From assembly GCA_040904465.1 (NCBI GenBank), contig JBBDTL010000172.1, forward strand, positions 1 through 26,526: a stretch of 26,526 nt of DNA, written 5' to 3'. This document shows positions 6,162 through 10,243 of the stretch, in pieces; position 1 is the stretch's first letter; the number at the start of each line of letters is the position of its first letter. The DNA comes from Thermomicrobiaceae bacterium (GTDB lineage Bacteria; Chloroflexota; Chloroflexia; Thermomicrobiales; Thermomicrobiaceae). The position numbers were made by a program, and so were the translations under genes. The notes beneath the pieces were generated by a model. That model made no database searches and was not told the DNA's origin. It worked only from the letters and a program-made list of their open reading frames with translations.

Positions 6162-7034
6162 GTGACAGATGATCTGCTCAGCGGCAATCAGATTCATCTA
6201 GCGGACAATCTTGATCTGCTCTGCAAGCTGCCAGACGGCTCCATTCCGCTGATCTACATCGATCCCCCGTTCAACACCGGCCGAATTCAGACACGTACCC
6301 GCATTCGCACCAGCCGGTCGATTGACGGCCCGGGTGACCGGACCGGTTTCCTTGGACAGCGCTATCAGACCACCCAGCTCGGCACCAGCCAGTTCGCCGA
6401 CTCGTTCGATGACTACCTGGCGTTTCTGGAACCCCGGTTGATCGAGGCGCATCGGGTGCTCGCCCCGAACGGCACACTCTACGTTCACCTGGACTACCGC
6501 GAGGTTCACTACGTCAAAGTGATGCTGGACGGCATCTTTGGTCGGGACTCGTTCATCAACGAGATTATCTGGGCCTACGACTACGGCGCCCGTGCCAGAC
6601 GAAAGTGGCCCGCCAAGCACGACACGATCCTGATGTACGCGAAGAACCCGAAGGTGTTCACCTTTAATGTGGACGACATTGACCGGGAACCCTACATGGC
6701 GCCGGGACTGGTCGGTCCTGAGAAGGCCGCCCGTGGAAAGCTGCCAACCGACACCTGGTGGCACACCATCGTACCCACTGTCGGTACCGAGCGCACCGGT
6801 TACCCGACTCAGAAACCGCTGGGAATCCTCCGCCGGATGATCAGGGCATCGTCGGACCCTCGAGATCTGGTGCTCGATTTCTTCGCCGGCAGCGGCACGA
6901 CCGGTATGGCCGCCCACGAGCTTGGCCGGCGGTTTCTCCTGGTCGATTCCCAGGAATCGGCGCTACAGGTGATGCAGGAGCGATTCCGGGATGTTGAGGG
7001 CGTGCGGTTTGTCGGGTATGAACCGGTATCGTAG
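6162..7034 (+). CDS. Site-specific DNA methyltransferase (N6-A/N4-C, beta class), solitary
   Basis: Motif IV IYIDPPF precedes YPTQKP and motif I LDFFAGSGTT; no endonuclease gene adjacent. Confidence 0.92.
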   Translation: MTDDLLSGNQIHLADNLDLLCKLPDGSIPLIYIDPPFNTGRIQTRTRIRTSRSIDGPGDRTGFLGQRYQTTQLGTSQFADSFDDYLAFLEPRLIEAHRVLAPNGTLYVHLDYREVHYVKVMLDGIFGRDSFINEIIWAYDYGARARRKWPAKHDTILMYAKNPKVFTFNVDDIDREPYMAPGLVGPEKAARGKLPTDTWWHTIVPTVGTERTGYPTQKPLGILRRMIRASSDPRDLVLDFFAGSGTTGMAAHELGRRFLLVDSQESALQVMQERFRDVEGVRFVGYEPVS

Positions 7035-7184: not shown

Positions 7185-8216
7185 TTGACCCACATACTCG
7201 ATTTACGCGGAGACTGGGCCGCCCGGCCGACGCAGGAGATGCGTCGGGCGATGGCCGATGCCGAAGTCGGCGATGACAACTCTCAGGAAGATCCGACGGT
7301 CATCAAGCTGGAAGAGCGTTCCGCCGAGCTGATGGGCAAGGAAGCCGGGCTCTTCGTGCCCAGCGGGACGATGGGCAACCTGGTCAGCATCATGGCGCTG
7401 GCGCCATACGGCTGCGAGATCATTGCCGGGGAGCAGGCGCACTCCATGATCTATGAGGTGGGCGGATATGCCGCAATCGGTGGTCACCCGGTCCGGACGG
7501 TTCCCAACGATCGATTCGGCATGATGGACCCGGACGCAGTGCGAGGCGCCATCCGGCCCGACAATATCCACTTCCCCACGACCGGTCTGCTACTCCTGGA
7601 AAACACCCACAATCTCCGCGGCGGGACCGTGCTGAGCGTGGAGCAGATGCGAGAGCTCTCAACAGTGGCCCATGACGCCGGTTTCCCGGTACATCTGGAT
7701 GGCTCGCGCATTTTCAACGCGGCCGCGTCGCTTGGTGTGCCCGCCAGGGATGTGGTGGCCGATGTCGACACGCTGACATTCTGCCTCTCCAAGGCGCTGG
7801 CCGCCCCGGTCGGCTCGATGGTCGTCGGCAGTCGGGAGCAGATCGACCGTGCCCGGCAGGCCAGAAAACTCCTGGGTGGTGGTATGCGGCAAGCCGGGGT
7901 TATCGCTGCTGCCGGGTTTGTGGCGCTGGAGACAATGATCGATCGTATCCCGGAAGATCACGCCAACGCCCGGAAGCTGGCCTATGGGCTTGCCGACATC
8001 CCCGGATTCACGGTTGATCTTGAAACGGTGCAATCCAACCTGGTTTTCGCGGATCTTTCTGAGGGGAAAACAGGCCCGGAGATTGGTGCCGCGCTGGAGC
8101 AGAACGGTGTCCGGATCAACGTGTTCGGGCCCGAACGAATACGGTTTGCCCTGCATTATGAAATCTCGTCGGCCGACGTTGATCAAGTAATCGACCAGGT
8201 CCGGCAACTCGTCTGA
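7185..8216 (+). CDS. ltaE: Low-specificity L-threonine aldolase family, PLP-dependent (paralogue 1)
   Basis: GDDNSQEDPTV, FVPSGTMGN, LENTHN, HLDGSRIFNA, CLSKALAAPVG (PLP Lys), GGGMRQAG. Confidence 0.88.
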   Translation: MTHILDLRGDWAARPTQEMRRAMADAEVGDDNSQEDPTVIKLEERSAELMGKEAGLFVPSGTMGNLVSIMALAPYGCEIIAGEQAHSMIYEVGGYAAIGGHPVRTVPNDRFGMMDPDAVRGAIRPDNIHFPTTGLLLLENTHNLRGGTVLSVEQMRELSTVAHDAGFPVHLDGSRIFNAAASLGVPARDVVADVDTLTFCLSKALAAPVGSMVVGSREQIDRARQARKLLGGGMRQAGVIAAAGFVALETMIDRIPEDHANARKLAYGLADIPGFTVDLETVQSNLVFADLSEGKTGPEIGAALEQNGVRINVFGPERIRFALHYEISSADVDQVIDQVRQLV

Positions 8217-8272
8217 CATCACGGTATTCCCGCTTCGGAGGCGGTTGCGGTCATCGACGCATCGCGACTGAC

Positions 8273-8281
8273 TGTTATACT
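8273..8281 (+). promoter_or_regulatory. Extended -10 promoter TGnTATACT
   Basis: TG-T-TATACT; would place +1 near 8287-8288. Confidence 0.5.
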
Positions 8282-8286
8282 TATGG

Positions 8287-8356
8287 GTACAGGTTGCTTC
8301 GGAAACTGATCCGGGGGTTCCAATGGGGCGGAACGCAGGAACAGCGCAACCTGTAC
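8287..8356 (+). ncRNA. Candidate structured 5' leader / small RNA (three-way junction), family unassigned
   Basis: Perfect 11-bp closing stem GTACAGGTTGC/GCAACCTGTAC with two inner hairpins (TCGGA/TCCGG and GTTCC/GGAAC); begins at the predicted TSS. Confidence 0.45.
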
Positions 8357-8368
8357 GTGTAACACACG

Positions 8369-8677
8369 ATGAATCGACAATACACGTCGCGAGTCAGTCG
8401 ATCTAAACCGAAGAAAGCGACGGGTGCTATGGTTTGGTCCCGGAGTGAGAACTCTGGTTCTGAATCGGCGCCGGCGACAGATGAGGTCGATGGACTCCGT
8501 TTCGGTTGTTCGATGTTGCGCCGTACACGGCTCTATCTGAATGGTGATGACAAACCGGTCATGCGCTGTTCGCTCGGATACGCAGTTCGAGATCAGGATG
8601 CTTTTGAGCGGTGTATGGCAGTTGAAGACCCATGTAACTGTTGGCATCTGCCATCACAGAATGGTTCCAGTTCCTAG
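8369..8677 (+). CDS. Small Cys-rich hypothetical protein (start uncertain: 8369 or 8429)
   Basis: ORF lies between a promoter and a terminator; C-terminal part CSML...RCSLG...RCMAVEDPCNCW looks protein-like; RBS weak. Confidence 0.45.
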   Translation: MNRQYTSRVSRSKPKKATGAMVWSRSENSGSESAPATDEVDGLRFGCSMLRRTRLYLNGDDKPVMRCSLGYAVRDQDAFERCMAVEDPCNCWHLPSQNGSSS

Positions 8678-8756
8678 AGACATCGGCCTCCGCAAGCGGA
8701 GGAATCTTCGGGCATACGGCTCGAGCCGGCCCCGACTCAGGGCACAAAACGATCGC

Positions 8757-8787
8757 AACCCGGCGGGATTCACCCGCCGGGTTTTTT
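8757..8787 (+). terminator. Rho-independent terminator
   Basis: AACCCGGCGGG-ATTCA-CCCGCCGGGTT stem running into a T6 tract. Confidence 0.8.
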
Positions 8788-8820
8788 AGTGGCTTTTCCG
8801 GATGTCAGGGGGCGTATGCC

Positions 8821-9720
8821 TCAGCCGAGATCGCTGAAGATCTGCGATCGGTGCACGGCCATTCCGGCCATCGCTCCGTCCGCGATCGCAAAGGTAATGC
8901 TTCCTGCGGCTCTCGCCAGATCGCCACATGCGAAAGCGCCCTCGACGGAGGTCCCTTTCATCTCGTCAGTCTTGATAATCGTCCCGAGCGGGGTTTCCAT
9001 GAGCTCGCACCCCAGCGCTTCCGCCGCCGGGCTGGCAGGTTTGATCGTTGATGCGACAAACAGGCCAGCCAGTTCGTAGATGCGGCCATCACGAAGATTC
9101 ACATTGGCCATCGTCCCGGTACCAGTGATCTCACTAACCGGCTCTCGTTTAATTGACACATTCCGAGCTTCGAGCTGCCTCACCTGGTCCTCATCGGGAT
9201 CGATAACCTCGTTGGTGAAGAAGGTCGTTGGTCCCCATTCAGGGATGAGAAGCGCCTGATGCATCGACATCTCGCCCGTCGCCAGAACACCAAGCGGGCC
9301 GTTGTCAAGCTCGTAGCCATGACAGTACGGGCAGTGGAAGACCAACTTGCCCCAGCGCTCCGCCAGTCCCGGGATCTCGGGGAGCTCGTCACGGACACCG
9401 GTCGCCAGCACGAGCCGCCTGGCATTCAACACCTCTCCTGCATCGCTGTGGACGATGAATTCATCGCCGGATTTCTCGACATGTATTGCTGCCCCTTCAA
9501 CCCAGGTGACGTTCGGGTACTTGAGTAGTTGAGCCCTGGCTTCGTTCGCGATCTCCGCCGGTGATCTCCCGTCCTGTCCAAGCAGCCCGTGAGAGCTTGC
9601 CGCGAAGCGATTCCGGCGCTCCCCGGCATCGATCACCAGAACAGTCCTTCGTGCCCGGGCAAGCTGCAAGGCAGCGGCCATCCCGGCATAGCTTCCCCCG
9701 ATGATAATGGCGTCAAACAT
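8821..9720 (-). CDS. NAD(P)/FAD-dependent oxidoreductase, thioredoxin-reductase-like (CPYC)
   Basis: IIIGGSYAG FAD motif, LVLATG, FHCPYCHGYE redox motif, FACGD. ATG 9720 overlaps the Rrf2 stop; alternative start 9741. Confidence 0.9.
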   Translation of the reverse strand: MFDAIIIGGSYAGMAAALQLARARRTVLVIDAGERRNRFAASSHGLLGQDGRSPAEIANEARAQLLKYPNVTWVEGAAIHVEKSGDEFIVHSDAGEVLNARRLVLATGVRDELPEIPGLAERWGKLVFHCPYCHGYELDNGPLGVLATGEMSMHQALLIPEWGPTTFFTNEVIDPDEDQVRQLEARNVSIKREPVSEITGTGTMANVNLRDGRIYELAGLFVASTIKPASPAAEALGCELMETPLGTIIKTDEMKGTSVEGAFACGDLARAAGSITFAIADGAMAGMAVHRSQIFSDLG

Positions 9721-10195
9721 CGTCGTACTCCCCGCATCCATGTATTTGCTCCTTGTCACGGTATAAATGGTGGTCGGGGAGGTGCTGGCGAACATCCTCG
9801 CTCAACTCGGCCAGCGTCACTTCACGAAAGCGAGCCAGAAGCACCGCCTCGGCATCCTGAAACGCCTGATCCATCGCTGTGTTAACGGCCTGTTCAACGA
9901 GGCAATCGGGAGATTCAGATCGATTTCCCATTGCGATAATCGCTGGTCTGTCCAGCGCTACGTAAATATCGTGGAGCGTCACAGTCCGGAGATCGCGGGC
10001 AAGCCGCCAACCGCCGCCATGTCCTTTCTCGGATACGACAAAGCCTTGCTTGCGCAGTCCCGACAGAATCCGGCGGACGACCACCGGGTTGGTCTGCATC
10101 ATTCTCGATAGTGCGTCCGACGTCACCGGTCCGTCTGCCCGCGACATGTGTAGAAGAATGTGGAGCACCCCGGATAGTCTGCTGTCTCGTTTCAT
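9713..10195 (-). CDS. Rrf2 family transcriptional regulator
   Basis: MKRDSRLSGVLHILLHM...TNPVVVRRILSGLRKQGFVVSEKGHGGGWRLAR winged helix; lacks the three-Cys Fe-S ligand set. Confidence 0.92.
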   Translation of the reverse strand: MKRDSRLSGVLHILLHMSRADGPVTSDALSRMMQTNPVVVRRILSGLRKQGFVVSEKGHGGGWRLARDLRTVTLHDIYVALDRPAIIAMGNRSESPDCLVEQAVNTAMDQAFQDAEAVLLARFREVTLAELSEDVRQHLPDHHLYRDKEQIHGCGEYDDV

Positions 10196-10212: not shown

Positions 10213-10243
10213 ATTTCATGTAACTTATGATATTACATGAAAT
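10213..10243. promoter_or_regulatory. Candidate Rrf2 operator (11-9-11 inverted repeat)
   Basis: ATTTCATGTAA-N9-TTACATGAAAT, perfect arms, 18 bp upstream of the Rrf2 start. Confidence 0.7.

Follow-up and report, generated by a model that had tools for sequence, protein, structure and literature searches.

Immediately downstream of a promoter-like sequence in a Thermomicrobiaceae genome lies a 70-nt segment closed by a perfect stem, and the question it raises is what such an RNA would do at the very beginning of a message. Throughout, the window denotes the whole stretch of DNA that was analyzed (26,526 nucleotides of contig JBBDTL010000172.1). On inspection of the sequence, an 11-bp helix, P1, begins 6 nt after the -10 element on the plus strand; its 5' arm, GTACAGGTTGC, is fully complementary to its 3' arm, GCAACCTGTAC, and an inverted-repeat search places the two 11-nt arms 48 nt apart. 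P1 encloses a hairpin closed by CGGA/TCCG, a second one closed by GTTCC/GGAAC and, 3' of the latter, the linker GCAGGAACAGC (Table 1). An earlier note on this DNA had read the extended -10, the stem, the two hairpins and the purine-rich linker accurately, and had taken them for an unassigned three-way-junction RNA, either a novel riboswitch-like leader or a small RNA controlling a Cys-rich ORF. Our analysis supports a promoter-proximal, structured leader of that ORF on the plus strand and gives up both the riboswitch and the separate small RNA. The 70-nt fold is real; it forms the opening domain of an mRNA leader that is long and highly structured, and the message encodes a small protein with four invariant cysteines.

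The promoter scan of 7900-9000 returned a single promoter-like site, TCGACG-16 nt-TATACT with a TG extension, and found no promoter on the minus strand. The terminator scan of the same interval reported only one intrinsic terminator (8757-8783 as scanned) and no terminator-like site before 8757; since this sole terminator lies after the ORF, a separate small RNA finds no support. From the predicted promoter to the terminator, the gene is predicted to be monocistronic. The ORF had been annotated from ATG 8369, which is probably wrong: the conserved Shine-Dalgarno (SD) sequence and ATG place the start at 8429, and the gene caller picks the resulting 82-aa form on a JGI contig from the same genus. 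An upstream ORF, or an extension from ATG 8369, was considered and rejected, as the 60 nt from 8369 to 8428 are non-coding: the reading frame of the 13-nt box within them varies between species (G000, G003), and relatives have stops there. Because the real ORF start is ATG 8429, the domain, given the predicted transcription start, opens a 5' UTR of ~140 nt. In 43 of 43 orthologous loci, TATA[AC]T occurs just once in the 300 nt upstream of the gene, at a distance of 87-166 nt from the ATG, against ~0.05 per 300 nt expected from base composition, which makes a long leader behind a conserved promoter, as judged from these sequences, a trait of the family.

Table 1 Features of the four-Cys gene and its leader, with coordinates in the window
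Feature	Position	Strand	Evidence and remarks
-35-like hexamer TCGACG	8254-8259	+	Promoter scan; not kept in relatives (promoter alignment)
Extended -10 TGTTATACT	8273-8281	+	Promoter scan; hexamer 8276-8281; predicted start near 8287-8289
5' stem-loop domain	8287-8356	+	P1 8287-8297/8346-8356; hairpins 8300-8313 and 8317-8334; linker 8335-8345
A-rich, weakly structured linker	8357-8390	+	35% A over -56..-17
13-nt box GAGTCAGTCGATC	8391-8403	+	Invariant in genus alignment; predicted to pair with 8485-8497 (MFE, genus consensus)
SD-like GAAAGCGAC	8413-8421	+	Block conserved upstream of ATG in all orthologues
Start-site hairpin	8418-8476	+	3' part of SD and GGTGCT (-6..-1) pair with GGCGCC; AUG 8429 inside
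CDS, 82-aa protein with four invariant Cys	8429-8677 (stop included)	+	Conserved start; gene call on JGI contig
CDS stretch GGTCGATGGACTC, codons E-V-D-G-L	8485-8497	+	Complementary to box 8391-8403
Intrinsic terminator, 11-bp GC-rich stem and T run	8757-8789	+	Terminator scan, inverted-repeat search

Folded by itself, the segment 8287-8356 reaches -31.0 kcal/mol with a z of -4.4 (-33 kcal/mol and z -3.7 for 8283-8360), and among 119 random 70-nt windows only 0.8% equal or beat its z and none its energy. The three-way junction described in the earlier note holds in part: it is the centroid fold of the domain, whereas the minimum free energy (MFE) structure is a single nested irregular hairpin. 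Perfect 11-nt inverted repeats with arms within 80 nt number nine in the 26.5-kb window against ~0.5 by chance (an ~18-fold excess, the chance figure for 11-mers being our own arithmetic).

We considered several identities for such an element. A known RNA family was rejected, as the earlier note had anticipated by eye: Rfam 15 returned no match in the whole window at the gathering threshold, nor any over 8273-8430 even at E ≤ 10. An intrinsic terminator was rejected because the stem is followed directly by GTGTAACACACG, with no T run on either strand, and because the terminator scan reports none here. A REP or MITE repeat was rejected as well, since BLAST finds one match in the genome, the domain itself, and the covariance model one match per genome. 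More broadly, it is highly improbable that the segment serves as a DNA element (an operator or cruciform), a minus-strand RNA, a repeat or the terminator of the upstream lyase gene. The arms do form a perfect inverted repeat and the minus strand, too, gives a stable fold (z -6.1), but G-U pairs in P1 of the relatives would be A-C mismatches on the opposite strand, a 48-nt arm spacing is atypical of an operator, and the lack of a minus-strand promoter, the single genomic copy and the missing T run speak against the remaining variants. The same G-U pairs point to an RNA read from the plus strand.

The conservation of the domain was examined in six distinct leaders from the window's genus, one of them from the JGI contig, which was the only distinct sequence added by metagenome and genome scans for genus-level leaders. 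Across the six, the promoter, a 17-nt block on the 5' side, ACAGRTTGYTTYGGAA, the 13-nt box and the SD-ATG region are kept and the rest is not. Five of the six have the P1 core GGTTGC/GCAACC (GRTTGY/RCAAYC), and the sixth species has another hairpin at the same place. Cells of the P1 core are 97% paired; of six slid controls, five stay at ≤55% and one, the +3 slide, reaches 94% on 18 cells. Within the 7-bp core, two pairs have changed on both sides in a compensatory manner (one from G-C to A-U, the other from U-A to C-G), showing that the closing stem is kept in relatives as the earlier note had proposed to check from homologous upstream regions. The covariation score is modest, being reached by 17 of 500 shuffles with five sequences only. 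Inside P1, conservation ends: junction, loops and linker differ among the six species, a three-way junction is possible in two or three of them (G000, G003 and perhaps the JGI contig), and in the other members the interior is one long irregular hairpin. Between genera, the leaders are unalignable and share a stem-loop at the 5' end and nothing else. A sister genus (13 sequences) has another 5' hairpin at this position; it covaries clearly and is 89.7% paired, compared with ≤54.5% when slid, with 16 cells carrying double changes and none of 500 shuffles as good.

The position of this stem-loop is nearly constant across the family. In 41 of 43 orthologues, pairing sets in 6-13 nt after the -10, and one genus (two genomes) departs from this, its first helix not starting until 27 nt after the -10. 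When 80 nt of each orthologous leader were folded, beginning 6 nt after the -10, the mean z was -2.0 over 43 loci; only about half of the leaders reached z < -2, and in 28 of 43 loci the plus strand folded more stably than its complement. These data bear on a neutral origin, in which a GC-rich leader folds by chance and the stem is kept by recent common ancestry alone. The stem is carried by only five or six close relatives, 17 of 500 shuffles match the covariation seen in so small a set, and z stays above -2 in about half of the family's leaders, all as chance folding would have it. However, we find this account improbable, because the fold ranks among the top 1% of random windows, the 7-bp core contains two double-sided exchanges, a 5' hairpin in another genus occupies the same position and covaries independently, and the position is constant in all but two of the 43 orthologues.

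In several genera (L033, L046, L047), an almost unbroken helix of 20-30 bp makes up the 5' hairpin, a form that would suit RNase III. Cleavage of such a helix would yield a shorter transcript with changed stability or translation, for which S. aureus cspA offers a precedent (PMC4419217). Since the unbroken helix measures 11 bp here and 7-10 bp in the genus, which is short for RNase III, we regard an RNase III site as improbable. In other genera (L026, L030, L025, L023, L024), we also noticed a motif, ATGCCACG(A/G), that recurs ~60-110 nt upstream of the -10 of the orthologous gene, and that may mark a regulator site or else belong to the start region of a divergent gene.

Downstream of the domain, the leader contains a second RNA element, which is more deeply conserved and more noteworthy than the 5' domain. 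The start-site hairpin (-28.9 kcal/mol, z -3.7, top 1% of random windows) pairs the region in front of the AUG with GGCGCC, the codons of Ala14-Pro15, which make up its 3' arm. The MFE structure shows this pairing in 42 of 43 orthologues, and here and there the two arms have changed in a compensatory way (GGCACG with GTGCC, GGCGCT with AGCGTC). The synonymous sites of the 3' arm are near-invariant, Ala14 being GCG in 35 of 37 and Pro15 CCG in 37 of 38 sequences, compared with a top-codon share of merely 0.33-0.75 at 12 other conserved residues. The codon usage thus indicates selection at the nucleotide level on Ala14-Pro15, and these near-invariant synonymous sites support a functional hairpin over the start codon. 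The SD-like sequence upstream of the AUG is represented in other genera by GAAAGTGAC or GAGGTGAC, and across relatives by GAAAGYGAC or GAGGTGAC.

A 214-nt fold from the 5' region into the CDS (-85.2 kcal/mol, z -3.5) resolves into three domains, namely the P1 domain, a short hairpin in the A-rich linker and a large box-CDS domain. In the MFE structure, the 13-nt box pairs with the CDS stretch GGTCGATGGACTC and encloses the start-site hairpin; for this third domain, the consensus fold of the genus has -33 kcal/mol. Other genomic matches to the box lie in unrelated contexts, mostly long open frames, and a pattern search for the 5' block and the box within the genus gave no regulon-like copies. 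The box and its CDS partner contain GANTC sites (GAGTC and GACTC, respectively), the box also has GATC, and a gene for an N6/N4 DNA methyltransferase (6162-7034) lies 1.3 kb upstream of the box; this may be coincidence.

The arrangement of the leader invites comparison with known start-site control. In rpoH-type thermosensors, the coding sequence pairs with the start region, and in E. coli tisB and the phage MS2 coat gene, structured start sites are served by an upstream standby site. Like cspA-type UTRs and rpoH thermosensors, the leader exceeds 100 nt, carries a conserved block at its extreme 5' end and a 13-nt box ~10 nt upstream of the SD, and has its start region paired with the early CDS; unlike them, it belongs to a protein that is neither a cold-shock protein nor a sigma factor, and sequence similarity is absent. 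As in tisB and MS2 coat, a stable hairpin takes in the SD and AUG, and the stretch before it is A-rich and weakly paired, which makes the linker 8357-8390 a possible ribosome standby region; in contrast to those genes, the protein here is a core conserved one, not a toxin or phage protein, and neither processing nor an sRNA partner is known.

A conserved hairpin that occludes the start site leads one to expect some control of translation, and the 5' domain might be its sensor: a small molecule, a metal, temperature or the Cys protein acting on the domain would open the start-site hairpin. The 5' block conserved within the genus would agree with such a translational riboregulator, as would the similar three-way junctions, each with a YGGAA motif and a linker rich in purines, that G000, G003 and the JGI contig can adopt. 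We nevertheless consider it rather unlikely, because the interior of the domain is unconserved in the genus and unalignable across genera, there is neither a terminator nor an Rfam match nor a further copy in 45 genomes, and the domain shows no particular affinity for the ribosome-binding region: their complementarity is no better than that of shuffles (mean z +0.1 over 43 sequences), and the same duplex-energy test applied to each genus sequence was non-significant in six of six. Alternative pairing of the 5' strand of P1 with the SD, hinted at by RNAalifold on the six sequences, was likewise rejected, its duplex energies being no better than those of shuffles. Binding of CsrA to the GGA motifs was rejected because PF02599 was not found in this genome or in two 98%-complete genomes of the genus. 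In a wider form, which we judge unlikely, the whole 5' region 8287-8497 would be a lineage-specific translational riboregulator whose hairpin, conserved across the family, shuts the start codon and whose fast-evolving 5' domain, or else the A-rich linker and box, receives the signal; a temperature, metal or redox cue, or the four-Cys protein itself, would then do the opening.

The same results weigh on the riboswitch-like reading of the earlier note, which is not supported, given the unconserved interior, the missing terminator, a pairing with the SD region no better than chance and the lack of a second copy in 45 genomes; there, the covariance model of the domain matched only the four orthologous sites on which it was trained. 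Like the three-way-junction aptamers of the purine and TPP classes, the segment is a multi-helix domain closed by P1, located in a 5' UTR just 3' of the promoter. Unlike them, it lacks conserved nucleotides in junction and loops, an expression platform tied to P1 and an Rfam match, and it accompanies one gene per genome in one genus. A riboswitch aptamer at 8287-8356 is therefore unlikely, since a conserved core and a P1-tied expression platform are missing and the element is confined to one gene in one genus.

Instead, we tentatively interpret 8287-8356 as a 5'-terminal stabilizer domain of the monocistronic four-Cys mRNA. The selected property would be a stable helix starting a few nucleotides from the 5' end, with sequence and interior free to drift. 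A near-absent single-stranded 5' tail (0-5 unpaired nucleotides, a figure that depends on the predicted promoter) would block 5'-end-dependent decay by RNase J, and this protection would preserve a message whose translation the start-site hairpin limits; this hairpin would bury the SD-AUG region and hold down initiation, with the A-rich linker perhaps acting as standby site. The start-site hairpin thereby provides a reason to stabilize a poorly translated mRNA.

In Bacillus-type decay, 5'-to-3' exonucleolytic attack requires an accessible 5' end. RNase J scored above the cut-off in four of four relatives and was not found in this genome, which is 71% complete; RNase Y is present in five of five genomes, including this one, and RNase E/G was detected in none of the five. 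RNase J and RNase Y without detected RNase E/G, a set of the Bacillus type, would fit a 5'-terminal stabilizer stem-loop, the relatives' RNase J representing the 5'-end-dependent nuclease expected of a host, and compensatory change accompanied by sequence drift, another mark of a stabilizer, is seen in both the genus and its sister genus. Hairpins of this kind are known from the 5' UTR of E. coli ompA and from the B. subtilis aprE and ermC leaders. In S. aureus cspA, a processed 5' stem-loop shields the mRNA from RNase J (PMC4419217). In common with these four stabilizers, the present element has a helix that would start a few nucleotides from the (predicted) 5' end of a long leader, keeps structure but not sequence, and occurs in a host lineage with RNase J and RNase Y. 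It differs from them in being a larger, branched 70-nt domain coupled to a conserved start-codon hairpin, and in that its function is predicted. Several observations speak against a stabilizer: a branched domain of this size is more elaborate than simple protection would require; z < -2 is reached by about half of the leaders only, and one genus has the 27-nt gap; RNase J was not found in this genome; the 17-nt block ACAGRTTGYTTYGGAA is conserved within the genus; and the 5' end is a predicted one.

To our knowledge, almost no regulatory RNAs have been described in the Thermomicrobiales, and the leader is thus a comparatively supported example of post-transcriptional control in this order of the Chloroflexota, in which a conserved promoter is followed by a 5'-end stem-loop and by a hairpin over the start codon, the 3' arm of the latter being under synonymous-site selection. 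It does not add a new riboswitch class; the element is lineage-restricted and, on the stabilizer interpretation, of a kind already known.

The leader also draws attention to an uncharacterized four-Cys protein, its start codon now corrected, that is evidently under tight expression control. Of 45 genomes of the family, 43 carry the gene, which also occurs in parts of the order Thermomicrobiales, and the ~82-aa protein has the invariant motifs GC..ML, RC.LG, C and CW. Pfam and NCBIfam searches assigned it to no family, a PDB profile search gave nothing significant, and matches in the ESM Atlas were hypothetical proteins only; the AlphaFold model (pLDDT 51) is too poor for a fold search. At 50% clustering, 88 relatives were found among 1.8 billion representative proteins, and some of them carry the four-Cys region as the C-terminal domain of longer proteins, in which we found no Pfam domain.

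Elsewhere in the window, a perfect 11-nt inverted repeat, ATTTCATGTAA/TTACATGAAAT, with its arms 9 nt apart (10213-10243), lies just upstream of a minus-strand gene for an Rrf2-family regulator (9713-10195) and is likely an operator. Three longer perfect palindromes, at 26067-26103, 26227-26256 and 18343-18372, have arms of 17, 14 and 15 nt, respectively, and because two of them have a common CCCCTCTCC core, they look like a repeat or terminator family.
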